A stretch of 45,600 nucleotides of DNA from positions 1 through 45,600 of the IMG/VR virus record IMGVR_UViG_3300033407_000031; one strand, written 5' to 3'. Shown one piece after another: positions 3,771-45,600 of this stretch. The first letter of the stretch is position 1; the number at the start of each line of letters is the position of its first letter. A program made the position numbers and the translations under genes. The notes under the pieces are model-generated. The model was given only the letters and a program-made list of their open reading frames with translations. It was not told the DNA's origin and did not search any database. This DNA comes from a virus. Taxonomy: Duplodnaviria; Caudoviricetes.

Positions 3771-3850
3771 GACGTTCCTTTCGCTTGTGGGCCTCCTCTG
3801 GCCCTTGGCCGGAGAACGGCCCCGCACCGCTCTGCTCCGCACCGCTCTCA

Positions 3851-4063
3851 CTAGTTATTCGACAGGGGTGGGGTCTCTCCCTTTTCTCCCTTGGACTCCC
3901 TGCTGCTCTCGACCGCTCGAAGAAGCCCCCGAGCCAGAACCTCCGCGGCCTTCGAGGGAATCACAAGAACCATCGGGTCCTCCCCGTCTGCTCCGAGAAA
4001 GACAACCTTAACCCAGTCCTCCCAAACACTGATCTCGACCCCTGTTGCCCTAATCACGATCAT
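3851..4063 (-). CDS. hypothetical protein (70 aa)
   Basis: GGAGG RBS, ATGA coupling. Confidence 0.65.
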   Translation of the reverse strand: MIVIRATGVEISVWEDWVKVVFLGADGEDPMVLVIPSKAAEVLARGLLRAVESSRESKGEKGETPPLSNN

Positions 4064-4230
4064 GGCGCGACCTCCACTTTCTCTCTCTCGCTCCCGTCGA
4101 CCATCCGCTGGAGCACTACGGCGAGATCGACCAGACCGTCCGCTCGAAGCTCAAGCGTGACCCAGACCGTCCTGTCTTGAAACATGACCAGAAACCGATC
4201 CTTCCCGAACCGAGTAACTTCGACCGTCAC
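4060..4230 (-). CDS. hypothetical protein
   Basis: GTG at 4230 overlaps the TGA of 4227..4424. GGAGG upstream. Confidence 0.55.
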   Translation of the reverse strand: MTVEVTRFGKDRFLVMFQDRTVWVTLELRADGLVDLAVVLQRMVDGSEREKVEVAP

Positions 4231-4424
4231 CTCGCACCTCCTCCCGTCGGGAGCACCCTCGTCACCTCGCGAACCTGCCCAATGACGTACCCACCGGCCC
4301 AGACGAGCTGGGCGTGATTCCGCTGGGACTCCGACCGCCAAGCGTGCCTCCTCCTGCCTCGCTCTGTCCGTGGCCCCGGTCCGCCGGAGTACCGTTGCAC
4401 TCGCTCGCGCTCTCGCTTCGACAT
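4227..4424 (-). CDS. small basic protein, first gene of the leftward array
   Basis: GAGGAG RBS 7 nt before ATG 4424. Confidence 0.55.
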   Translation of the reverse strand: MSKRERERVQRYSGGPGPRTERGRRRHAWRSESQRNHAQLVWAGGYVIGQVREVTRVLPTGGGAR

Positions 4425-4616
4425 GACTAGACTCCTCGGGCGAAATTGCCCAACGCCCCGAACGGCCCTTCGACCGCCCTGAGCTCGCCCCCTCCTCCCT
4501 AAGTGACTCCCGCCTCCGCGTGTGACTCCGCCTCGACCCGTCCCCTCGCGGCCTCCTCGCCCTGCGAAGCCGCCGCGAGGCCGCCTCGCGAACCGACCTG
4601 GTGCCTACGGTCGTGC

Positions 4617-4632
4617 TGGTACGCCCTTTGCA
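4617..4632 (+). promoter_or_regulatory. sigma54 (RpoN) -24/-12 promoter motif
   Basis: TGGTACGCCCTTTGCA versus consensus TGGCACG-N4-TTGCW. GG-N10-GC spacing is exact. Confidence 0.7.
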
Positions 4633-4661
4633 CCACCTTAGTGACTAGGGACCGAACTTCC

Positions 4662-4688
4662 GTAAGTTGGGCTCCCGCCCTGACTTAC
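4662..4688. promoter_or_regulatory. GTAAGT-N15-ACTTAC palindromic protein-binding site, copy 1
   Basis: GTAAGT tgggctcccgccctg ACTTAC. Recurs at 4880-4906 and 45450-45476. Confidence 0.7.
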
Positions 4689-4879
4689 AATCGCGTCCCT
4701 TGTCCCTTATCCCTTGTCCTGGCCCCCTGCTCGGCCCTGAGAGCTCCGACCTGAGAGCTCCGACCTGAGGGTCTCTCTCTCTCCTCTCTCTCTACTCTCT
4801 CTCTCAAACATATCAGAAGGGGCTCCGGGGGGCCGGGGGGACCCCCAAAAACAAGGGACAAGTGACAAGTGACGCAAAC

Positions 4880-4906
4880 GTAAGTAACGGACTGGACTAC
4901 ACTTAT
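4880..4906. promoter_or_regulatory. GTAAGT-N15-ACTTAT palindromic site, copy 2
   Basis: Same 15-nt spacer. Lies 29 bp from the - strand sigma54 box, mirroring copy 1. Confidence 0.7.
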
Positions 4907-4935
4907 AACAATCATGTCACTAGTCCCTTACCTAT

Positions 4936-4951
4936 TGCAAACCCCGTACCA
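4936..4951 (-). promoter_or_regulatory. sigma54 -24/-12 promoter motif
   Basis: Reverse complement reads TGGTACGGGGTTTGCA, with exact GG-N10-GC spacing. Confidence 0.7.
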
Positions 4952-5329
4952 GCACGGTCCTTGTAACTATGGACCTGACTAGTCAGGGGAAAACGGCCCG
5001 TAGGGGCGAGTAGGGCCGGGGGCCTACCTATCGGGCCGGGGGCCCTACTCGCGAACGTGGCCGATTCTAGCGGCCCTAGCGGCCAAACTAGCGACCCGCC
5101 CCCGCGGCCCCTAGCCGCGAACGCGGCCCCCGCCGCCGCCCCGAACGCGACCTGCCCTAGAACGCCCCGTAGCGGCCCGGCACGGCCGGTCGGCCCGTTA
5201 CGGGGCCGGAGGCCAAGGTCGGGCACGTGGCCGAACCTAGCCCCCCTAGCGGGCCGCGAGGCTAGGGAACGCCCCCCCGCCCGGCCCACCAACCCCATGA
5301 ACACCGTTCATTCCCCCCGTGAACGGCGT

Positions 5330-5854
5330 TCACGACAATCCAGGAACGAAATTCTCTGGAACAAGCTCCGTCTCATTGACCCCCCGAACCGCCGCAAAGT
5401 TGCTCTGAGGCATCGGGAGGTTTTCCGCTTCCGCAAGATCGAGCAACCAATGTCGCAACGTCTCCTCGGCCCCGTCTTCCCGCCGCAGAACCGCTACGGT
5501 CAACCGATTGTAGTCGGCAGTGATCGTGGGGTCCCCATGCGTCAGGGCCGTAACCTTCGCCAGATCCAGCCGAGCTTCCTGAGCCTTCTCATCCCCGACC
5601 GTGCCGAAATCCCGCTCCGCCAGATCGCACGCATTGAAGATCAACGCGTGGGGACCCGTTGCCCGAATGACATTCCCGTGCCTGTCCTTCCCGATGATTC
5701 TGGCGTAAGCAGAGTATCGGGACCGCATCAGGACGATGAGATCTTCGATCGGCGTGTCGTTCGGGTTCCACACAGGCCGAGCCCAGTCCCGAACCGGCGT
5801 CTTACCACCAACCCGGCCGATCTTCATCCGTTGCCATTTAATCATAGCCATCAC
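5330..5854 (-). CDS. hypothetical protein (174 aa), stand-alone gene
   Basis: GGAAGGA RBS, globular composition, flanked by non-coding DNA. Confidence 0.75.
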   Translation of the reverse strand: MMAMIKWQRMKIGRVGGKTPVRDWARPVWNPNDTPIEDLIVLMRSRYSAYARIIGKDRHGNVIRATGPHALIFNACDLAERDFGTVGDEKAQEARLDLAKVTALTHGDPTITADYNRLTVAVLRREDGAEETLRHWLLDLAEAENLPMPQSNFAAVRGVNETELVPENFVPGLS

Positions 5855-6296
5855 ACTATCCTTCCAACTAGCCTAGCATCCGAACCTCTAGCAGGGCTCC
5901 GGCCCCGCTAGTCCTGCGGTCGCGTTGTTGCGAACCGTACCCTACTTGTACGCTCGACCCGCCCCGCGGTTCGCCCGGTTCAACAAAGGATAAAGATTCT
6001 TTTTATCGCCCGCCCGTCTCCATGAGATCTGTAGATCTTGAGAGTAAGATCTCCTCTGATCGGATTGGCCCTGCGGCAGTGGATCAGGAGAGTAATAGAT
6101 CTTGAGAGCGGGAGGTCCCCCGATCACCCCCCAGGGGGGCCCCTAGCGCGAATAAATGAAACCGTCAATAATTTTCCAGTCTTAGGGTACCTACCTACTT
6201 TGGGCACCATTCAAGTATAGCCAAGCCCCGCCCACGCGGGGGAGCGGGGGAGCGGGGGAGGACCCCCGCAGGGACCACCCGAACCGGAACGGCCCG

Positions 6297-7016
6297 ATGG
6301 ACCCATCTCGAGAAATCAAGAAGCTCTCGCATAGGCACCTTGCGATTATGGAGCTGTGGCTGGCGGGGGTGCGCAGGAAGGATATCGCGGCGAGGTTGGG
6401 GTATACGCCGAGCGGGGTGAGGATGATAGTCGAGTCGCCCCTCTTTCAGGAAGAGGCTGCGAAGAGGCGGGAGGGCCGGCTCAGGGAGGCATCGGAGCGC
6501 GGGAGGGCGTCGCGGGATCGGGCGCTCGAGGCGCTCGAGGAGGCGTCGGAGGCCGCCGCGATGGTTCATGTGGGGGCGCTCGGGGATCCGGATGTCCGGG
6601 CGAGGCAGGCGAGTGCGGAGGCGATTCTCAACCGCGTTTTTGGTCGCACGGGAGAGGCGAGCGGGGAGAAGCTCCGGCCGGTGAATATTACGGTGGAGCA
6701 GTTGCAGATGATTCAGGTCGCGCTCCGGGAGGCAAGCGGTCCGGGCCAGAGTCACGACGAGCGTCGAGCGGTGGGGTACTCCGGGGGGGAAGGGAGTCCC
6801 ACCGTAGGTGAGAGTCACCCGAGCGGAGGGTACTCCGAACGCGCGGGAGGGAGTTACTCCGAACTTTCGGCCGTAGGTGAGAGTCCCGTACGGCCCAGCA
6901 CAGAGAAGCTCCGAACCGCTCTCGCAGGGGGCGATCTCCGAACTGCCCTCGGGAAGGGTCAATGGAACGATCCCACCGTAGGTGAGAGTAACGCCCCTTC
7001 GGAGGCACGGGAGTGA
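6297..7016 (+). CDS. terS: terminase small subunit (N-terminal HTH)
   Basis: HTH-like RRKDIAARLGYTPSGVRMIV, then a helical region (ARQASAEAILNR). Directly upstream of and coupled to TerL. Repetitive C-terminal tail. Confidence 0.75.
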   Translation: MDPSREIKKLSHRHLAIMELWLAGVRRKDIAARLGYTPSGVRMIVESPLFQEEAAKRREGRLREASERGRASRDRALEALEEASEAAAMVHVGALGDPDVRARQASAEAILNRVFGRTGEASGEKLRPVNITVEQLQMIQVALREASGPGQSHDERRAVGYSGGEGSPTVGESHPSGGYSERAGGSYSELSAVGESPVRPSTEKLRTALAGGDLRTALGKGQWNDPTVGESNAPSEARE

Positions 7017-7034
7017 TGGATCTCCGAACTGCAG
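6766..7034 (+). repeat. interspersed direct repeats in the terS 3' end
   Basis: CCGTAGGTGAGAGT at 6802, 6871 and 6976. CTCCGAAC at 6833, 6857, 6909, 6936 and 7022. Confidence 0.8.
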
Positions 7035-8593
7035 TAGAGGAGCTCCCGAGCGAGGTCGCGGAGGAGGCCGCGTCGCTCGGATCGGAGGAGCGTCAGGCGC
7101 TTCGCGAGCGAGGGGAGGCCTCGCTTTATTTCTTCTGCAAGGCGGTGCTTGGGTTTACGCTGCTCGATCCGGCGGTCCACCTTCCGCTCTGTAGGCTTCT
7201 CGAGAACGAGGGCGTAACGCACAGGATGATCGTGCTCCCACGAGGGTGGTTCAAGAGCACGATCGCGAGCGTCGGGAAGCCGTTGTGGGAGGCGGTTAGG
7301 AATCCGAACGTCAGGATCTTGATCGTCCAGAACACCTTCGCGAACGCGGCGAAGAAGGTGGAGCAGATTAAGCACCTCGTCGAGCGATGCGAGCTCTTGC
7401 ACCTTCTCTGGCCGGAGATCCGGCCAGGCCGGATCTGGAAGATCGACTCGCTTCACCTCGAGCGTAGCTCGACCTGGCCGGAGGGGACGTTCGAGCCGGC
7501 AGGGACGAGGACGAAGGTGGTCTCGCGGCACTTCGATATTATCATCGAGGACGATACGGTTGCTCCCGACCTTGATGATCTCACGGTCGAGAACGTGCTC
7601 CCGTCGAAAGAGGACATTGACCAAGCGATCGGATGGCATAGGCTCTCGCCTCCACTCTTCACGCCCTCGCCTCGGGCACAGTCCCTCATCATCGGGACGA
7701 GGTGGTTCGAGCGGGATCTTATCTCGTGGGTTCGCGAGAACGAGTCGCATTACGAGATTTACGAGCGGTCGTGTCGGGAGGACGAGGAGGGTCGGTCGGA
7801 TCCGCTCGGGCTCCCGACCTTCCCCTCGCTCTTCCCGGAGGAGAAGCTCGCGGCGCTCGAGAGGACGATGGGGCCGTATCTCTTTCGGTGCCTCTACCTG
7901 AACAAGCCAACTCGGTCGACGGACATGACCTTCCGGTCCGAGTGGTTCACGTGGTACGACGTGGAGCCGCGGGGGCTCGTGGTCTGGACGACGGTCGATC
8001 CGGCTCCGGGACCGGACGACTCGAAGGGGAGAGACTTGGACCCCTCCGCAATCGTCGTCGCTGGGAAGGACCTCTCGAGCGGGTACATTTATGTCCTGGA
8101 GACGTGGAGGGGGGTCGTTAACCCTGGAGAGCTTATCGATCGGTTGTTCGAGACGGTGAGGAGGTGGAACCCGGTGGCGGTCGGAGTCGAAAAGGTCGCG
8201 TATCAGAGGACCCTGCTCTACTGGATTCGGGAGCGCATGCGGGAGCAAGGGAAGTTCTTTCTTGTGCAGGGGCTCGAAGGCTCGAGGACCTCCAAGGTCA
8301 GTCGAATCATGGGCCTCCAGCCGCTTTTCGCCTCCGGGACGATCTTCCTCCGACGGTCAATGAAGGAGCTTGAGTCGGAGCTTCTCGCGTTCCCGCTCGG
8401 AGCGCACGATGACCTTGCGGACGCGCTCTCGATGCAGCTAGGGCTCTGGCAGATGACGAAGTTGGTGAGGAGCCGGGAGCGATACAGGGGGGAGGACCCC
8501 TTCCGGGCGGACGATGCGATCGCGGCGCTTCGAGGGCGTCACCGAGGAGGGGAGAGCTTCCTCTCCGACCTTCTCACTGTAGGGAGGAACTAG
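7013..8593 (+). CDS. terL: terminase large subunit
   Basis: Walker A LPRGWFKST, Walker B IIIEDD, IGTRW, and RNase H-like nuclease motifs TTVDPA and FPLGAHDDLADAL. Confidence 0.95.
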   Translation: MMDLRTAVEELPSEVAEEAASLGSEERQALRERGEASLYFFCKAVLGFTLLDPAVHLPLCRLLENEGVTHRMIVLPRGWFKSTIASVGKPLWEAVRNPNVRILIVQNTFANAAKKVEQIKHLVERCELLHLLWPEIRPGRIWKIDSLHLERSSTWPEGTFEPAGTRTKVVSRHFDIIIEDDTVAPDLDDLTVENVLPSKEDIDQAIGWHRLSPPLFTPSPRAQSLIIGTRWFERDLISWVRENESHYEIYERSCREDEEGRSDPLGLPTFPSLFPEEKLAALERTMGPYLFRCLYLNKPTRSTDMTFRSEWFTWYDVEPRGLVVWTTVDPAPGPDDSKGRDLDPSAIVVAGKDLSSGYIYVLETWRGVVNPGELIDRLFETVRRWNPVAVGVEKVAYQRTLLYWIRERMREQGKFFLVQGLEGSRTSKVSRIMGLQPLFASGTIFLRRSMKELESELLAFPLGAHDDLADALSMQLGLWQMTKLVRSRERYRGEDPFRADDAIAALRGRHRGGESFLSDLLTVGRN

Positions 8594-29696: not shown

Positions 29697-30522
29697 GCTC
29701 GAGGGGGACGAGCTGGTGGAGCGAGGGGAAGAGGCAGAGCTCATTGTTCGGGAGCGGGGTCACGGGGCGCTTGAGGGTCCTGGCCTCGTAGTCGGGAGCG
29801 ACGTCGAGATCACCCATCCGGCCCTGCTTCGAGCCCTTGGCTTCCCTTATCGGGGTAGCGACTCGACCTACGCCCTAACAAAGTACTGGCATGGAGAGTG
29901 GCACCCATCCACTCTCTTCAGCGTAGGTGCAGTTGGCGTTATGGATGATGGGATGGGCGCTCAGGTCCCGACCGGGATCGTGGGGAGGTTCGTCAGTGGC
30001 GGCGACATCGATCGGTTGTTCGAGCGGAAGGAGCTCGAAGCGTTGCTTCGGCGGGAGTCCTTCACTGGCCCAGTTACGCTTGGAATGCACGACGGCTTCG
30101 TCTCCGCGGTGAACCTTCGCCTTAACCCCGTCATCTTCGCTCTGGGCGAGTGTCGAGAGGGAAAGCTCTCTGAGCTCCTCCGAACGGGAGGTCCGATCGG
30201 AGAGAAGTGGGTCATTGCAGCGGTGGTCTCTCGCTGGCCCTGGCCGGCTCGAGAGGCGGAGGGTCGGGCGGAGCTCCTGGGCCTCGAGAGCGAGGAGCAC
30301 TTCTGGGGCTTCCGCCTTAACTGCTTTCGAGACTCCCGATGGACCACCGAGTCGATCCTCGGGATCGCGACTGCGAAGGGAGAGAAGCTCTCTGACGCGA
30401 ATGCTCGACTGTGGTCACTCGTGCGAACGATTGGCGTGGCGGAGAAACAGGTTCGACGGGACTGGGTCCAGATCGGAGGCTCCGCGTGGCGAAGGGCTAG
30501 GGAATCCCTTATCGTCAGCTAG
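29641..30522 (+). CDS. degenerate PurD/GARS-like ATP-grasp protein
   Basis: VMDDGMGAQVPTG, LEALLRRESFTG, VVSRWPWP and GIATAKGEKLSDANARLW...KQVRRD follow the layout of the PurD ATP-grasp and C-terminal domains. Confidence 0.55.
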   Translation: MKIRMQCDGMLSALERHLKLEGDELVERGEEAELIVRERGHGALEGPGLVVGSDVEITHPALLRALGFPYRGSDSTYALTKYWHGEWHPSTLFSVGAVGVMDDGMGAQVPTGIVGRFVSGGDIDRLFERKELEALLRRESFTGPVTLGMHDGFVSAVNLRLNPVIFALGECREGKLSELLRTGGPIGEKWVIAAVVSRWPWPAREAEGRAELLGLESEEHFWGFRLNCFRDSRWTTESILGIATAKGEKLSDANARLWSLVRTIGVAEKQVRRDWVQIGGSAWRRARESLIVS

Positions 30523-31715
30523 CCTCGTTCTCTCTTCACGTAGTGAATGTTCCCGGGACCCCTTGAGATCTCTTGAATCCTTCCTGCCATTTGAAGCGAC
30601 TTGATAAGCTCGTCCATTTCGGAGGGCTTAAGTCGATTCTGAAAGAGAAAAACTAGCTGCTGTCGGTTCACCCCGTCCGCTCGGGCCGTAATGGTCTTGT
30701 AGATCGCCTCGAGGAAGTCCCCTGACTCACTCGAGGCGATCCCTCGAACGAGCATGGGAAGGAACTGCTCTGTTGTGTGGAGGATCTGAAGCCCCTCATT
30801 AAGGTCCTGCTCTGAGATGACGAGGGAGGGCTCCCGAGCCATTCGACAAAGGATGGCGAGGGTGAGCCAGTGCATATGACGCCGATCCGGGTACCCTGGG
30901 ATGTCCTGGAGCGGTGCATTCTCCGGCCGCGTGAAGTCACACATAATGCCTTCGTAGTACTTCTTGAAGAGCTGAAGGGCCACTTGGTCCACCGTGATCT
31001 CTCCCTGCACATTCGTGCGGATCCAACTGAGCCGCTCGACGATTCGATCCCGAATCCCGTGTCGACGCTCAACATCCGGGACGAACGCTACTCGAGGCAT
31101 TGCGGCTGGAACGTAGACGAAGTTGATGCGAGAGGTAAGGCCGGCCCCGGTCGCCTGCTTTGGGAACTCCTCTCGAATGAGCGGGATCGTAGAGCCTCCA
31201 AGGAGACAAACACAGACATTTCGGAGCTCTTCCTTCCCTCGACCCCGAGTATGGTAGGTGTGGAAGTCAGGAGAATCGTAGAGAGCGTTAAGAAGGTTAA
31301 CCATCCCCCGCTCGACACTCCCTCGATTGAGAAAGGTTGTAAGCTCGTCGGCGATGATTACTCCGGAGGACACTACTTCGAGGGAGACCCGACCTGGGAG
31401 AGGTGGGACGGGCGTGGGAGCAAGGGCCTCAACGATTGCCTCGGGAGTGGCCTGCTGAGCCAGGAGGGATATCTTCGGCTTGACTTGGTGGAGGACTGAG
31501 CTAACCCCCTTAATCGCGGTGCTCTTCCGACATAGCCCTGAGCCCGCCACGTAAACAACGTAAAGGTTCGGATACACGTCGTAGTTAAAGCGAAGACAGA
31601 CATTTCGGCCAAGGGCTGCGGATATGGAGAAAAGCCCGTTCCAGAGAGCGTAGACCGGCGGGACCTCGGTTCCCTCATACAGGGACATAAATTGGTGGAT
31701 AATGCTAGGCTCCAA
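30519..31715 (-). CDS. DUF3987/YfjI-like P-loop ATPase (putative replicative helicase)
   Basis: YPNLYVVYVAGSGLCRKST (Walker A), IIADEL (Walker B), GLTSRI (Arg finger), probable C-terminal winged helix. Confidence 0.75.
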   Translation of the reverse strand: MEPSIIHQFMSLYEGTEVPPVYALWNGLFSISAALGRNVCLRFNYDVYPNLYVVYVAGSGLCRKSTAIKGVSSVLHQVKPKISLLAQQATPEAIVEALAPTPVPPLPGRVSLEVVSSGVIIADELTTFLNRGSVERGMVNLLNALYDSPDFHTYHTRGRGKEELRNVCVCLLGGSTIPLIREEFPKQATGAGLTSRINFVYVPAAMPRVAFVPDVERRHGIRDRIVERLSWIRTNVQGEITVDQVALQLFKKYYEGIMCDFTRPENAPLQDIPGYPDRRHMHWLTLAILCRMAREPSLVISEQDLNEGLQILHTTEQFLPMLVRGIASSESGDFLEAIYKTITARADGVNRQQLVFLFQNRLKPSEMDELIKSLQMAGRIQEISRGPGNIHYVKRERG

Positions 31716-34053
31716 GAAACTCCTCCACCGGATGTTGGTTGAACCAGTCCTTCCCGACCGTTACTTTCCATGGAATCACCAATGGACGGGCAACGCCATC
31801 AACGGGGATCTCGACCCACATGACGGAATGGAGAAGCTCGAGACATCGTGGAAGGTGGGAGCGGGGGCAAGAGAAGTTAATCTCGTCATGGACCTGGAGC
31901 GTAGGGACCGCGGGGACGAGGATTTGCTCCGCTCGAGTAAACGCGATTGCAATGACGTCGGCGACGACTGCTTGGGGGATGAAGGAGTAGGCGGAGCGAT
32001 AGAGCTCGTCGTTGAAGAGGCCGAGGAACCGTCGGACTCGGCCGAGAGGAGTTCGGAGCACTCTTGTAGCCTGTAGCTGATTCTGGACATCTGTCCACCA
32101 AGTTTGTAGCTCTGGTATCGCTGAGCGGTATCCCTCAAGTGATCGCTTAGCGTCTTGGAAAGGGATATCGTAGAGAGTAGAAGCTTTTTGAGGTCCGAGA
32201 CCGTAGTTTCCCCCATGTACTCCGATCTTTCCAATCGCACGCTGAGCAGAAGAGACTGTGTCCTCACTAACTCCGAATACCAGACTCGCACTCCATCGAT
32301 GGATGTCGAACCCTGGCTCATCGAGGAACCTTTCAATCAGTGGGTGAATCCTAGCGATCCAAGCAACGACTCGAACTTCTGCTTGGGAGAGATCGACTTT
32401 AATCCAGACGTGACCTTCCTCGGGAAGAAACATCGGCCTGGCGTTCTTTGGAACGTTCTGGAGATTCCCCCCAATCCCGAATATCGTCTTTCCAGAGGAG
32501 ATCCTCCCGTTCACCGTCCCTGCGACGTTGTAGCTAGTGGTGAGTCGATGGTCCTCCCGGAGTCGAGCCTCGAGGTAGGTCGACCGGAACTTTCGCTCGC
32601 CTCGGTACTCTAGGACCGTTCGGAGCAGGGGCTCGTGCTGTGGAAACTTCCTGGCGAGAGCTCGAAGCGCGTCCTCGTTCACGGTGACCTCGCCCCGGAG
32701 TCGACGCTTTGGGAGCTTGAGCTCTCCGTAAAGGTATTCCTTCATCTGCTTAGGGGAGTTCGGATTGAGCTCCTGACCGGCGAGAGCGTGGATCCCCTGG
32801 AGAAGCTCGACCTCCCGTTGCTGACAACTTTGTCTTCTCGTCGCTCGAAAGACCTCGTCCACCCGGACGCCCCGATTCTGAACACGCGTAAGTGCGTGCA
32901 TCGCTGGCATTACGATGGTTTGAAAGTGCTCCCAACAGCCTAGCTCCCGAGCCTCGCCCTCGAGCACTCCCGCCACCTCGAAGGTGACGCAGCAGTCGAA
33001 TCCGTTGTAGGTCCAGGTGCTTGAGTCAAGCGAGCTATTATAGTCGCTGTACTTGTGGAGGTCCGTGTAGATGCTTGTCAGAAAGTCGAGGGACTTCGGG
33101 AGCTCCGAGTGGCACGAGTGTGAGAGCAAGAGCGTATCCACGGCGAGCCCCACGCACGGGAGGCCGAAGTCCTGCTCGAGGATCGTTGAGTCAAACGGGA
33201 AGTTCTGGGCGACCTTCTCGATCCCCGGATTCGAGAATATTCGAAAGAGCACGTCGAGGATCTGCCGTTCTTCCTCCTCGGTCCACGCGTTCTCGAAAGG
33301 GCTCTCAGTCTCATCGAGACTGATCCCACTACGACGCTGGAGAAACGGGACCACTAGCGCGTGGGTCTCGCTCCAAGCAAGCCCGAGGCATCGGGTGTGC
33401 TGCCCAACGGTCTCGATGTCGAAGGAGATTCGAGGTCCGAGAGCACCCGCTGCAATTCCTTGAAGGACCGCGACAATGCGACGGAAGTTGAGACCGGTGA
33501 GGATGCTGTAGGACCTCTCTCGAGGTCCGGAGATCGCAATCCGGCCGGCTTTCTTAAGATCAAGGGCCGTAATGGGATAGTTCTCTGGAGCTCGAAAGAG
33601 ATTCGCGGGGTGATAAGTGGCAACGACCGGGAGACCCGGGTGAATCTCTGTAAGTCGGTGGACGAAACCTCGGTGAGCCTCAATTCCCTTCCGAGCAGGG
33701 AGGATGGCTCTAAGTGCCTCCGCCCCCAGAGGCACGAGGATAGAGGGAGAAAGAGATCGGACCTCGGCTCGCAGGCTCTCCCACCCTGCGAGAAGCTCGG
33801 GCTTAGGCTTGTTTCGCTTGAGAGAATCCTCATAGAAGTACCCGAAGTCATTGCTTGGCGGACGCACCTTCATCACGTTCGTAAGATAGCACGCGGAGCG
33901 GGAGATCCCGGCTCCAGCGAGAAGACGGTCTAGCATCCGACCTGAGGGTCCAATGAACGGGACGCCTCGAGCTTCCTCCTCCGACCCTGGAGCCTCCCCG
34001 ATGATGACGATCTTCGCGCTTCGAGGACCAAAGGGGTGGACGGTGATGGTCAT
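31705..34053 (-). CDS. polA: family A DNA polymerase with N-terminal uracil-DNA glycosylase-like and 3'-5' exonuclease domains
   Basis: UDG family 4 motifs IIGEAPG, YLTNV and TYHPA. Exo motifs FDIET, QNFPFD and YNGFD. Pol motifs DLSQAEVR, RAIGKIGVHGGNYG and QVHDE. Confidence 0.95.
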   Translation of the reverse strand: MTITVHPFGPRSAKIVIIGEAPGSEEEARGVPFIGPSGRMLDRLLAGAGISRSACYLTNVMKVRPPSNDFGYFYEDSLKRNKPKPELLAGWESLRAEVRSLSPSILVPLGAEALRAILPARKGIEAHRGFVHRLTEIHPGLPVVATYHPANLFRAPENYPITALDLKKAGRIAISGPRERSYSILTGLNFRRIVAVLQGIAAGALGPRISFDIETVGQHTRCLGLAWSETHALVVPFLQRRSGISLDETESPFENAWTEEEERQILDVLFRIFSNPGIEKVAQNFPFDSTILEQDFGLPCVGLAVDTLLLSHSCHSELPKSLDFLTSIYTDLHKYSDYNSSLDSSTWTYNGFDCCVTFEVAGVLEGEARELGCWEHFQTIVMPAMHALTRVQNRGVRVDEVFRATRRQSCQQREVELLQGIHALAGQELNPNSPKQMKEYLYGELKLPKRRLRGEVTVNEDALRALARKFPQHEPLLRTVLEYRGERKFRSTYLEARLREDHRLTTSYNVAGTVNGRISSGKTIFGIGGNLQNVPKNARPMFLPEEGHVWIKVDLSQAEVRVVAWIARIHPLIERFLDEPGFDIHRWSASLVFGVSEDTVSSAQRAIGKIGVHGGNYGLGPQKASTLYDIPFQDAKRSLEGYRSAIPELQTWWTDVQNQLQATRVLRTPLGRVRRFLGLFNDELYRSAYSFIPQAVVADVIAIAFTRAEQILVPAVPTLQVHDEINFSCPRSHLPRCLELLHSVMWVEIPVDGVARPLVIPWKVTVGKDWFNQHPVEEFLGA

Positions 34054-40320: not shown

Positions 40321-40746
40321 TCACGCCTCCGGCGGGAGGTAATCTCGAACGTTCGAGTAAAGCTCCGACTCACCGGTCTCCTTGTTCTGCCCGGCCCGTT
40401 GGGTGATCAGCAGGCGGACCACCCGCTGGTTGAGGGCCTCGGGATCAAGCTGCCCCTTTGCGGGGATGTACCCTGAGCTCGTGCAAAGGTGCTTGACCAT
40501 CACTCGACCCGCAGAGAGCGGATCCGCATCGATCCAGATCTTGTGAGTGATGATCCGATTGTTCGCGGCCTCGTCGTACTGAGGGAGGATCTGACTCTTC
40601 ACCGTGAAGGTGTTGACCTCCCGACCGTCCTTCCCTTGCTCCTCAGCAAGGACGGGAACGTCGATGATGCGGGCCTCGTAAACTCCGGCCGGAATCGGAG
40701 GAACGCGATCCGGTGTTGCGTCGTAGTCAAAGTCAAGAAGGGTCAT
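40321..40746 (-). CDS. DUF669-like single-stranded DNA-binding protein
   Basis: PIPAGVYEARIID...YSNVRDYLP OB-fold pattern, next to the Sak4-like ATPase. Confidence 0.75.
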   Translation of the reverse strand: MTLLDFDYDATPDRVPPIPAGVYEARIIDVPVLAEEQGKDGREVNTFTVKSQILPQYDEAANNRIITHKIWIDADPLSAGRVMVKHLCTSSGYIPAKGQLDPEALNQRVVRLLITQRAGQNKETGESELYSNVRDYLPPEA

Positions 40747-41498
40747 GGGGTCTTCTCTCTGTTAAGGGTGGAAAGGATCTCGGGGAGTCCCTGAGTCATG
40801 TCGGTTGGATCCGGGAGCTGAAAGCGGGTTCGTGCGATTACGTCCGCGGTGGAGATCGTGCGGAGACAGAACCGAGTCTTGCCCCCTGGGGCGTCTCGGG
40901 CCTCTGCGAACCATACTTCATCGAAGGGTCCCATTATCAGGTCAGGAAGGTTACGTCCGTAAACGCCGAGCCTCGGAACGGTCCGCTTGTTTTTCTCAGA
41001 GCCGATCTCGACAAGCTGAGTGTGAGCGATGAGGATCGAAAGGATCGGGAGGTTCCGGAGCATGAATGCGACGTTCTGGACCTCGAGAATCGCAGCTCCC
41101 CAGTCCTGGATCGCTGGGTTGACGTTCTCGGCTTTGCCAGCTCGGAGCATGGTTGTTCGGAGCGCCGAGGTCGCGACGGCGGATAGGGAGTCAATGCAGA
41201 TCGCCTCGAAGGGGAAGTCCCCTTTGCGGATTCGTCGCTGAACCTCGAGAATGTAGTTCTTGACCTCATCGAGCATCCGAGGGGACTTGAGGTCCGGGTC
41301 GGAGAACTGCTTGACGTCGACTTTGTGGCGCTCAGGGGTAAATCGGTCTGCGAGGAATGCTCCGCTCGAGACTCCGGCCTCGAGGTCGAGAAAGTGCAGG
41401 CGCTCCCCGAGCGTCAGGACGAAACAGGTCTTCCCGGTGCCCGGAGGACCGTAGATCAGAACGGACTGGACCTTCGGATTGAGCTCGCCTAGCTTCAT
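40743..41498 (-). CDS. AAA_24 / Sak4-like ATPase (recombinase)
   Basis: VLIYGPPGTGKT, FLDLEAG, ICIDSLS, ILIAH, FDEVWF. Confidence 0.85.
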   Translation of the reverse strand: MKLGELNPKVQSVLIYGPPGTGKTCFVLTLGERLHFLDLEAGVSSGAFLADRFTPERHKVDVKQFSDPDLKSPRMLDEVKNYILEVQRRIRKGDFPFEAICIDSLSAVATSALRTTMLRAGKAENVNPAIQDWGAAILEVQNVAFMLRNLPILSILIAHTQLVEIGSEKNKRTVPRLGVYGRNLPDLIMGPFDEVWFAEARDAPGGKTRFCLRTISTADVIARTRFQLPDPTDMTQGLPEILSTLNREKTP

Positions 41499-41761
41499 CG
41501 AGAGGCTCCTAAGACTCCAACGAGGTTAGCGACGTTGTCCCGATCCACTACGTAGTAACGGACTCGCCCGCTCTTGAATGTTCGAAGGAGATTCACCTGA
41601 CCCAGGTTCTTTAGGTGCCTGGAGCAAAGCGAGTCACTGATTGCAAGGTCCCGAGCGAGACTCCGAACCGGCCTGGCTCGCCCGTCGAGAAGGATCCTAA
41701 GTGCCCCAAGGCGAAGGGCGTTCGCAAGGGAGGCGAATTGTTGCTCCGGAGTAACATCCAT
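41495..41761 (-). CDS. ArsR/SmtB-family winged-helix transcription regulator
   Basis: FASLANALRLGALRIL...VRSLARDLAISDSLCSRHLKNL...KSGRVRYY. Confidence 0.8.
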   Translation of the reverse strand: MDVTPEQQFASLANALRLGALRILLDGRARPVRSLARDLAISDSLCSRHLKNLGQVNLLRTFKSGRVRYYVVDRDNVANLVGVLGASR

Positions 41762-41773
41762 GAGATCGGTTCC

Positions 41774-42670
41774 TTACCGCTCTGAGAGCACGATTGGCTC
41801 CTTTGGGTACTCTCGGAACATTCCCGCCAGGTCCGTCCACTTCGGCACGTGGTGACAGAGGTTAAGAAAGTCACAGGAGTACCCCGGCTGCCCGAACATC
41901 GGGATCGTCGAGCACCCCGTGAAGTGCATAGGGAAGTCCTGGCGAGCTTCGTCCGCGAGGAGCCGAGCTCCGGTCTCCCGAATCCACTGAAGCAGTGCCT
42001 CGCTCTGGTACTCCCGCACATCCACCGGATTGCACAGGGTCTCTGTGGTCTTCGGACTGACTCGAATCGCGACGTGCCAGACTCGATGCACTGGCTGCCC
42101 CGTCCCAATCGAGTACGCAAGGGCGTAGGTTAAAAACTGGGGCGACCCGGTGAAGCCCTCAAGGTACCTCGTGGAGATCTCTCGGGAGGTCTTGAAGTCG
42201 ACCAGGCAGACCTGACCGCTCGTAAGCTCGCGGATCCGACCGTCGATTCGAACGAGGAGCGGAACCGGAAGCCCAACGTCGACCGCGAAGGAGATCTCCC
42301 ACGGCGAGGTTCGGTCGTCGAGAGGGAGTGTGTTGGCCGGAGGATCGAGAATCTCGAACACCCCTCGAGTCGACTGGTGGATGCTCTTGAGCATCCAAGG
42401 GACTCGCTCTCGGGCCCGTCCCTTATCATCATTGAGCTCGACGCTCCACGCTGAGTCGAACGCTTCGAGTGCCTCGTCGAGCCGACCCTGACACGCAAGG
42501 GGCGCCGCCTTGTGAATCGCTGTGCCGAACGAGAAGTAATTCGGTTCCTCCCGAGGGCCGAGACGAACCCCGCTCTTCAGGAAGTAAAGTCTCGGACACC
42601 TTGCGTAGTTAAGGAGCGAGGTCGGCGAGAGATACGTTCGCTTTTCGTACCGATCGAATCCTGGCGTCAT
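41774..42670 (-). CDS. PD-(D/E)XK (RecB/Cas4-like) exonuclease
   Basis: LSPTSL...CPRLY, FGTAIH, RIDG, LVDFKT, QFLTY, and C-terminal Cys residues. ATG 42670 after GGAG. Confidence 0.85.
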   Translation of the reverse strand: MTPGFDRYEKRTYLSPTSLLNYARCPRLYFLKSGVRLGPREEPNYFSFGTAIHKAAPLACQGRLDEALEAFDSAWSVELNDDKGRARERVPWMLKSIHQSTRGVFEILDPPANTLPLDDRTSPWEISFAVDVGLPVPLLVRIDGRIRELTSGQVCLVDFKTSREISTRYLEGFTGSPQFLTYALAYSIGTGQPVHRVWHVAIRVSPKTTETLCNPVDVREYQSEALLQWIRETGARLLADEARQDFPMHFTGCSTIPMFGQPGYSCDFLNLCHHVPKWTDLAGMFREYPKEPIVLSER

Positions 42671-43059
42671 GTCTGCTCTCCGGCGATGAGACCAAGGACG
42701 GAGTCTGGACAGTCCCACTCATACTTCGGTACGACTCGCTCAGGCGAGGCTGGAACAATTCGCTCTCCGACCTGACGTCTGGTGCAGATAAGACTCCTAG
42801 GGCAAACAAGGTGGATGTTCATCTTCCATCCGTCAGGAGGAGTCGCCTGGACAATGAACTCCGATCCGTCGAGTTCTGACCTCCTCGTCTTCGGGAACAT
42901 TCTAATGGCGTGTTGAAGGTCTTTGAGGGTGGGGCAGTTGATCCATTGAGGATAATGTAAGACGAAGGTGGATGGAAGTGGAAGGTCGGGATGAGCCTCT
43001 AGGAAGTCCGTGAGCTTCCTCATTGACTCCAACCGTTCAGCTCGTTCTTTCTGGTCCAT
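42667..43059 (-). CDS. hypothetical protein (130 aa)
   Basis: AAGGAG RBS, ATGA coupling. Confidence 0.7.
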   Translation of the reverse strand: MDQKERAERLESMRKLTDFLEAHPDLPLPSTFVLHYPQWINCPTLKDLQHAIRMFPKTRRSELDGSEFIVQATPPDGWKMNIHLVCPRSLICTRRQVGERIVPASPERVVPKYEWDCPDSVLGLIAGEQT

Positions 43060-44735: not shown

Positions 44736-45104
44736 CTAGTCCTCGTCGGCCTCCTCGTCGTCTTCCTTGACTCCGAGAGCGTCCTTCGCCTGCTGCCAAT
44801 ACCGTTCCTTGATCTTCTGGATCGACAGGCCACTGCCGTCCGAAAGGGCTGCCGTAAGCCCGTTCAGGTCCAGCTGACTTGCGATCTGGAGCGCCTTGTT
44901 CCCGATCATCTCCTTCGTCGGCCTCGTCGTCGCTGCCGAGCGGATTCGGTTCATCTCGTTCGTGAGCGCTTGGGCGTTGACGAGCTTAAGAAGCTCGGCC
45001 TCTCCGTGGATCTGAATGGCTTCCTCGATGGACTCCGCCAGGTCAACCTTGGCGGTCCCGACCGTCTTCCGCTTCGCCGTCACCTCTTTTTCAATCGACT
45101 TCAT
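44736..45104 (-). CDS. hypothetical early protein with acidic tail (122 aa)
   Basis: AGGA RBS, strongly biased codons, own terminator. Confidence 0.8.
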   Translation of the reverse strand: MKSIEKEVTAKRKTVGTAKVDLAESIEEAIQIHGEAELLKLVNAQALTNEMNRIRSAATTRPTKEMIGNKALQIASQLDLNGLTAALSDGSGLSIQKIKERYWQQAKDALGVKEDDEEADED

Positions 45105-45420: not shown

Positions 45421-45436
45421 TGCAAAGGGCGTGCCA
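45421..45436 (-). promoter_or_regulatory. sigma54 -24/-12 promoter motif heading the early/replication block
   Basis: Reverse complement TGGCACGCCCTTTGCA is a perfect match to TGGCACG-N4-TTGCW. Confidence 0.8.
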
Positions 45437-45446
45437 AGGGGCAGTT

Positions 45447-45479
45447 TACGTAAGTTGGGGCCTAGCCTATACTTACGTA
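45447..45479. promoter_or_regulatory. TACGTAAGT-N15-ACTTACGTA palindrome, copy 3
   Basis: Perfect 9-bp arms with a 15-nt spacer, just upstream of the sigma54 box. Confidence 0.75.
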
Positions 45480-45600
45480 CGCGGGCCGCCCGCCCGAACC
45501 TGCCAACTTGGCACCTTTCCCTCACCTCCCTGCCAAAAGGATCGTAGCCCGTCAGTTTTTCGAGACGTCCTGGTCAAGTCTTTCCAGATCCTCGAAGATC

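Follow-up and report, generated by a model that had tools for sequence, protein, structure and literature searches.

What is served by a mirror-symmetric element placed where the early and late operons of a phage diverge, in a genome with no recognisable primase? The window, meaning the whole stretch of 45,600 nt analysed here, contains such an element, with its axis at 4784. An earlier note had read it as two convergent sigma54 promoters whose transcripts could prime a bidirectional origin, and had offered a mutually exclusive left/right transcription switch as the alternative. The element was re-measured, looked for in related phages, and weighed against these and other roles.

The mirror element and its genome

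The window amounts to a podovirus genome, circular and complete, whose gene order is PaP2/119X-like. It sits on a 45,630-nt contig in run X1, which fits a complete 45,600-nt circle. Late genes occupy the + strand from terS at 6297 to 30522; early and replication genes lie on the - strand, from 4424 round the circle to 30519, and the early arm encodes a PD-(D/E)XK nuclease, Sak4, a ParB-methylase, UDG-PolA and a stand-alone DUF3987 protein. This two-arm order, the combination of PolA with a stand-alone DUF3987 protein and a size of about 43-45 kb are those of PaP2/119X-like phages (Fredfastierviridae). The helicase is only 23% identical to that of PaP2, and the phage is treated as belonging to a related group, not as a family member. 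Named phages with this layout are PaP2, 119X, PaMx41, Tiera, Mel-JY34, VS-ABTNL-3 and a Desulfofustis phage. The helicase of the present phage (P0002) is also listed on a contig of 45,799 nt, 199 nt longer than the window; the excess could reflect overlap left by the assembler, variation between strains or a terminal repeat. The relevant features are as follows.

4597..4717 (+): left arm of the mirror, core 4612-4717, placed by alignment and by composition-corrected score
4617..4632 (+): sigma54 -24/-12 box pointing right, into the element; start expected at about 4643 from consensus spacing
4641..4652 (+): inward heptamer pair, unit G[GT]GAC[TA]A, including the family core GACTA
4662..4688: TAAGT-N15-ACTTA palindrome of IHF-type geometry, degenerate, its better half with 5 mismatches to WATCAR
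4693..4717 (+): outward heptamer array of period 7, candidate iterons
4718..4850: asymmetric centre, 45% AT
4736-4769: 14-nt direct repeat within the centre
4772-4805: CT tract within the centre, containing the axis 4784
4817-4846: G clusters within the centre
4851..4971 (-): right arm of the mirror, core 4851-4956
4851-4875 (-): heptamer array of the right arm
4880-4906: TAAGT-N15-ACTTA palindrome of the right arm
4916-4927 (-): inward heptamer pair of the right arm
4936..4951 (-): sigma54 -24/-12 box pointing left; predicted start at about 4925
4974..4987: perfect 14-bp palindrome with two further GACTAG cores
5298..5332: two tandem TGAAC-N3-GTTCA palindromes, 22 nt apart, with a third copy at 181-193; candidate regulator (operator or activator) sites
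5330..5854 (-): 174-aa orphan ORF, flanked by the element and terS and oriented toward the former
6297..8593 (+): terS (N-terminal HTH) and terL, head of the late operon
30519..31715 (-): stand-alone DUF3987 protein, MCM-like AAA+ plus C-terminal winged helix, candidate initiator-helicase
31705..34053 (-): UDG-3'5'exo-PolA fusion
40321..42718 (-): PD-(D/E)XK nuclease, small HTH protein, Sak4 and a conserved 141-aa protein
45421..45539 (-): third sigma54 promoter, in canonical order, ahead of the replication operon (ORF from 45390)
45531-45539 and 45501-45513 (-): activator-like boxes of the third promoter
45450-45476 (-): IHF-type palindrome of the third promoter
45436-45421 (-): -24/-12 box of the third promoter

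The left core arm (4612-4717) and the reverse complement of the right one (4851-4956) align without gaps, as had been reported, with 72 of 106 positions identical. The same comparison on 300 dinucleotide shuffles of 4430-5330 gave a mean of 48.2 and a maximum of 55, and the second-best mirror site of the whole genome reaches 54/106. By the composition-corrected score the arms could be lengthened to 4597-4717 and 4851-4971 (63.5 bits). With the block borders redrawn in the present analysis, motif blocks are identical at 61/67 positions and spacers at 11/39, in place of the previous 61/70 and 11/36; the total is equal and the contrast stands. With so few spacer positions identical, it is the layout, that is the order and spacing of the motifs, that is conserved rather than base pairing. 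From the outside inwards each arm holds a sigma54 box, the inward heptamer pair, the TAAGT-N15-ACTTA palindrome and the outward heptamer array, so that short tandem repeats are found in inverted arrays, as in iteron-type elements. The "GACTAG box" previously placed at the start sites is present there, but it is a pair of the heptamer of the inner array, reversed in direction.

The concern that the symmetry might come from assembly was answered by other assemblies: contigs of identical sequence run through both arms in X1, X3, X4 and X5, four of the eight runs compared, and the element is no assembly artefact. Contigs break or begin at the CT tract in X2, X6 and X8, and X7 has no coverage of the element. 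The breaks near the axis are not taken as termini, since depth is only 3-7.5, foreign CT-repeat contigs are drawn to the tract and four runs cross it.

For 3800-7800 no RNA data set was listed as containing the sequence, which has no bearing on expression. A search of the element against Rfam returned no family, with a single match at chance level, and the arm sequences have relatives at one viral locus only (L004), whose proteins show no similarity to those of the phage family. No relatives of the 174-aa ORF were found outside this phage. To the right of the element, 4990-5270 is GC-rich and CTAG-rich, with degenerate direct repeats of about 69 nt, 170 apart. Upstream of terS, the AT-richer segment 6025-6102 contains four AGATCT sites plus more GATC sites; as the phage encodes a ParB-methylase, this cluster is a possible pac or methylation-sensitive site.

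The mirror in related phages

In order to collect relatives, terL was aligned, yielding 161 loci, 123 of them distinct; 44 extend at least 2.6 kb upstream of the gene, one being the present genome. A mirror of at least 30 bits was found upstream of terL in 23 of the 32 relatives with at least 4.4 kb of upstream sequence and in 2 of the 11 with less, against none of 41 downstream control stretches (maximum 25.2). A set of 20 whole relative genomes was also scanned, made of 12 contigs (one partial) and 8 GenBank records. For 19 of them the top mirror of the entire genome falls where early and late genes diverge, between 0.4 and 6 kb upstream of terS; 14 of these score at least 30 bits and 5 are at background. 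The one missed is PaP2, whose best mirror in a fixed 100-nt window scores a weak 52/100 and runs across the junction of the two record ends.

Arm sequences vary between phages, and the design is common: repeats of 7-10 nt around a low-complexity centre. The repeat period is 7 or 8 in 25 of 42 arms, and GACTA points inward on both arms in 8 of 21 elements, for a null mean of 1.5. A low-complexity centre, mostly of AT runs, is seen in 23/28 elements and in 6.5% of random windows; inward G runs occur on both arms in 11/28, inward C runs in 4/28. Loci L045, L108, L110 and L120, which reach 30 bits without a typical centre, were excluded from the counts of period, GACTA, centre, G runs and inward promoters, and L032, a close relative of L046, from the last three. 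Similarity searches miss the element because its layout and position are conserved and its sequence is not.

The primase-encoding podoviruses T7, LUZ24 and CW02 show no mirror above 24 bits, the terminal-repeat junctions of T7 and LUZ24 included, and ReqiDocB7, which encodes both DUF3987 and a primase, none above background in the 30 kb scanned of its 76 kb. Near its DUF3987 helicase (L195, 22600-25080) ReqiDocB7 has a large non-coding region containing CCTAAAT repeats, most of them in direct orientation, and a TATATA tract. Neither IHF nor DnaA consensus sites are clearly enriched in the elements: DnaA boxes occur in 4/32 (5.6% of shuffles) and canonical IHF sites in 2/32 (5.1%). A DnaA-box match lies in the mirror centre of MW202554 (L023, about 35926) and of L196. 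A canonical IHF site suspected in both arms of MW202554 was rejected, its spacing being N3, which leaves the strict pattern unmatched.

A literature search, covering few subscription papers, found no account of the element and, for the group, neither an origin nor mapped termini; the accessible parts of PMC9959647, PMC12747347, PMC3652863 and PMC2811001 contain nothing on termini or the motif. The mirror is thus a real, family-wide and apparently undescribed element. Of the arrangement proposed for a search in related phages, the mirror at the divergence recurs (19/20) and the convergent sigma54 pair does not, being present in none of 32 relatives' elements.

Sigma54 boxes, palindromes and a proposed switch

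The match of the outermost block to the RpoN -24/-12 consensus was confirmed: the boxes at 4617(+) and 4951(-) fit TGGYACR-N4-TTGC, with exact -24/-12 spacing, and are identical to each other at 18/18 positions, with the spacers at random level. A further strict box at 45436(-), with another palindrome at 45450, 14 nt farther upstream, had escaped the inventory of two, so that the genome has exactly three of each, for chance expectations of 0.09 boxes and 0.01 palindromes per genome. All three boxes fit the consensus given in the accessible part of PMC4641369, and are probably real RpoN sites, as judged from sequence.

A preference for sigma54 boxes in the region upstream of terL is seen throughout the family, with 18 strict boxes in 276 kb there, 16 of them leftward-pointing, against 3 in 606 kb downstream. 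In the 20 whole relative genomes, 7 of 8 strict boxes are within 1.3 kb of the axis. Four of those in relatives, and the site at 45436, are preceded at a distance of 71-181 nt by a TTTTGGCAG-type box; the same box, as TTTTGGCAG / CTGCCA-N3-TGGCAG, precedes sigma54 sites in G010, G022 and G025. The recurrence of this motif suggests a shared host activator. No such box was found within 4.8 kb of the axis of the present genome. The site at 45436 has the order of a canonical sigma54 promoter (activator, IHF, -24/-12), whereas the boxes of the element face each other, lack an upstream activator-like box and have their palindrome downstream, at +20 to +46. In the available part of PMC4641369, a few activator sites of Desulfovibrio are placed 40-70 bp downstream of sigma54 promoters.

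The palindrome is not confined to this genome. TAAGT-N15-ACTTA occurs in 17 viral loci, where it precedes a sigma54 box by 5-7, 15-17 or 25-29 nt, a helical phasing (about 10.5 nt) with p 0.0006 over 12 non-redundant loci. Its symmetrised consensus in viral contigs L005-L021 is TAAGTCnTTG-N5-CAAnGACTTA, and 12 of the 17 are within 1 mismatch of the IHF consensus WATCAR-N4-TTR; as a class it behaves like a symmetric IHF site. The three copies of the present genome have 5, 2 and 3 mismatches and keep only the outer bases, so IHF binding to them is put forward conditionally. In two unrelated phages the non-coding stretch just upstream of terS holds clusters of sigma54-like boxes (up to 1 mismatch) in both orientations, 8 in L254 (2500-3000) and 15 in L255 (2450-3410); these may be arrays that bind RpoN or act as decoys in packaging regions.

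The convergent pair, taken by the earlier note as the defining design, is genuine but private to this genome. Four of the 32 relatives' elements have a single box; inward sigma70-like promoters were seen in only 2/28 elements and mirrored IHF-type sites in 1/28. Convergent sigma54 pairs 290-320 nt apart occur at three other viral loci, none with mirror arms (27-38/106). The two boxes of this genome should not be dismissed, however: they match at 18/18 positions amid randomised spacers, a search for a sigma70 promoter nearby found none, and the right-pointing one has no gene for 1.65 kb.

These observations bear directly on the proposed switch. In this genome the element might be mainly a face-to-face sigma54 transcription switch, the left promoter serving the early genes and the right one late genes or an antisense RNA, with palindromes and heptamers as downstream IHF or activator sites, for which the Desulfovibrio arrangement offers a precedent. 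The identity of the two boxes amid random spacers, the bias toward the region upstream of terL and the failure to find a sigma70 promoter within 4200-6400, where no terminator was found either, are in its favour, and the left-pointing box (4936..4951) is the sole recognisable promoter candidate for the early operon starting at 4424. The right-pointing box does not fit: no gene lies within 1.65 kb of it, and its transcript would cross an antisense gene before reaching terS at 6297, the first + strand gene downstream. Nearly all family sites point leftward only. Since relatives have the mirror layout without the promoter pair, the purpose of the mirror cannot be a switch, and the mutually exclusive left/right version fails for the family; a switch as the main role in this genome is itself improbable.

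Replication, packaging and episomal readings

The statement that PolA and a helicase-like ATPase are present without a recognisable primase was upheld. No primase family matched any of the 90 own ORFs (61 + 29), and no family common to the 21 genomes is recognisable as a primase. The PHROG label "DNA primase" falls on the DUF3987 protein itself, whose model matches MCM subunits: with an AlphaFold pLDDT of 90.7, its top Foldseek hits are all MCM subunits (E 7e-10), and the C-terminus has three helices and a beta-hairpin. The protein is therefore modelled as a predicted MCM-like AAA+ helicase with a winged helix. PMC4889955, a 2016 survey of viral replication genes, places DUF3987 among SF6 helicases as MCM-related, notes its C-terminal winged helix, and counts 119X among notable viruses lacking a primase, leaving priming open; in what is available of PMC11724360, helicase activity is shown for one PriCT-DUF3987 protein. 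A 122-aa protein of unknown fold (44736-45104, -), near the head of the replication operon and present in 12/21 genomes, is a candidate accessory or initiator factor.

The reading given about an even chance is that the element is the iteron-type, two-sided origin of primase-less MCM/PolA phages, with one start per strand. The predicted MCM-like helicase would load on each arm, where the repeats would act as iterons for its winged helix; the centre would melt, IHF-type bending would occur within each arm, and a single start on each strand would be followed by continuous copying, with no need of a primase. Copying would then be leading-strand-only both ways, with forks co-directional with both operons. 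The inward sigma54 boxes of this genome would be a lineage-specific add-on, of which the left-pointing one likely doubles as early promoter, and the two together may help to open or prime the origin.

An origin starting each strand once fits the symmetry, the repeat arrays, the usually AT-rich centre, the helicase with its DNA-binding tail and the absence of a primase, and the two-sided origin with heptamer iterons proposed at the outset stays plausible on the layout-conserved cis element and these proteins. Several results count against it. The suggested check for a GC-skew inflection gave no turn at the axis: from the axis to terS, skew is positive in no more than 3/19 genomes, and it tracks gene strand, gene orientation being a confounder of this test. 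The AT content of the centre, here a CT tract, is 45%, little more than the 40% of the whole genome; the element is some 20-26 kb from the helicase gene; DnaA boxes and canonical IHF sites lack clear enrichment; 9/32 relatives are below 30 bits, 5 of the 19 well-placed mirrors do not rise above background and the PaP2 mirror is weak.

That the sigma54 transcripts are the primers, as first proposed, is unlikely. RNAs from both promoters would run into the origin as R-loops, the left-going one with a GA tract and the right-going one with G clusters, PolA would extend them and the helicase would load on the heptamers. In ColE1 (RNA II), the R-loop origins of T4 and phi1.1 of T7, an RNA polymerase transcript can prime a PolA-type polymerase, from one oriented sigma70 or phage promoter and with a primase for the lagging strand. 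The literature searched held no sigma54-primed or two-promoter mirror origin. If true, the arrangement would be a primase-free, leading-strand-only replicon with firing linked to a signal from a host activator, and would be one case of a mirror origin used throughout the family.

Should the element be an origin, priming quite probably comes from another source in every member, a variant within the origin explanation and not exclusive of it. Host DnaG, de novo synthesis by PolA with a small SSB-like protein (CCPol-MP type) or strand invasion by Sak4 are the alternatives. Most relatives lack an inward promoter. PolA and a stand-alone DUF3987 protein are in 21/21 genomes, the nuclease in 19/21, Sak4 in 18/21 and the 141-aa protein, which has no Pfam hit and is presumed SSB-like by position only, in 10/21. 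PolA-SSB primases are described in the available parts of PMC7581432 and 10.1101/2022.12.02.518924; the polymerases of such pairs are N-terminally truncated in the latter, but the present PolA is full length, with UDG and exonuclease domains. Priming from elsewhere also leaves the retention of both sigma54 boxes unexplained.

Among known origins, RSF1010 oriV (IncQ) resembles the element in its two inverted, opposite-strand sites (ssiA/ssiB), leading-strand-only synthesis and plasmid helicase, as far as the accessible text of PMC8567376 goes. It differs in having its own primase RepB', a separate initiator RepC and ssi hairpins; the phage arms keep spacing instead, with spacers only 11/39 identical, and no primase was found. 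In the available part of PMC7581432, SaPI Rep and SCCmec Cch/Cch2 are helicases of mobile elements, Rep and Cch2 bind short iterons through a C-terminal domain, Cch is MCM-like, and an A-family polymerase is a partner; their origins are directly downstream of the helicase gene, whereas the phage element is 20-26 kb away, at the operon divergence, as a 350-bp mirror. The present phage, with a presumably bacterial host, has no Orc1/Cdc6 gene and a helicase model without the MCM N-terminal domain, and in these respects differs from archaea. Archaeal ORB-DUE-ORB origins nevertheless resemble the element, having inverted boxes, often with G-run ends, an AT-rich centre and an MCM helicase.

The main rival, absent from the earlier note, is packaging. 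The element would be a genome-end junction, with repeats as TerS sites, the palindrome as IHF bend and the cut site or terminal repeat in the centre; this is possible, though we lean against it. LUZ24 has the same two-arm layout as this phage, and the element, between terS and the early genes, has the map position of the LUZ24 terminal repeat. The records of PaP2, 119X and PaMx41 open within some 30 nt of the axis. TerS contains an HTH, in 19/21 element-bearing loci of the terL clade the protein is homologous, the box clusters of L254 and L255 are just upstream of terS, and in lambda cosB inverted repeats flank an IHF site. The junctions of T7 and LUZ24 are likewise non-coding, lie close to terS or to an end of the genome, and contain short repeats with a CTA core. 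They show no mirror, scoring 19 and 21 bits, T7 and LUZ24 each encode a primase, and the T7 junction repeats are mostly direct, packaging being polar. A terminal repeat at the site was found in none of 16 Jamesmcgillvirus records, the sequence standing in one place per record in all 16 and several records having probably been opened to match PaP2, and contig ends in the centre of metagenomic elements are explained by poly-T/TA tracts (homopolymers). A TerS homologue is detectable in 12-13 of 20 relatives against 20/20 for helicase plus PolA, a weak contrast as small proteins diverge faster. Shea was called "terminally redundant" from a tagmentation library, with no coordinates (PMC13348215). 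The two roles need not compete: the origin may coincide with the physical ends of the genome. Phages are known that replicate from their ends, in which origin and terminus roles can coexist.

A symmetric site for recombination, or for circularisation and resolution in an episomal (carrier) state, is very unlikely. Shea, a phage of this group, is reported to persist unintegrated (PMC13348215), and GTDB genomes yielded a single family terL, on a 42.5-kb contig. Against such a site, no recombinase or protelomerase was found among the 90 own ORFs, and the arms differ between phages without one host-site consensus.

The element is thus offered as a candidate cis element for the whole primase-less group. 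Cultured members, namely PaP2, PaMx41, 119X, Shea and Tiera, make the question of origin or terminus directly testable. The preference of the family for sigma54 promoters is a second lead. If the mirror is an origin, it would belong to a minimal two-protein replicon, with an MCM-like initiator-helicase at work in bacteria.
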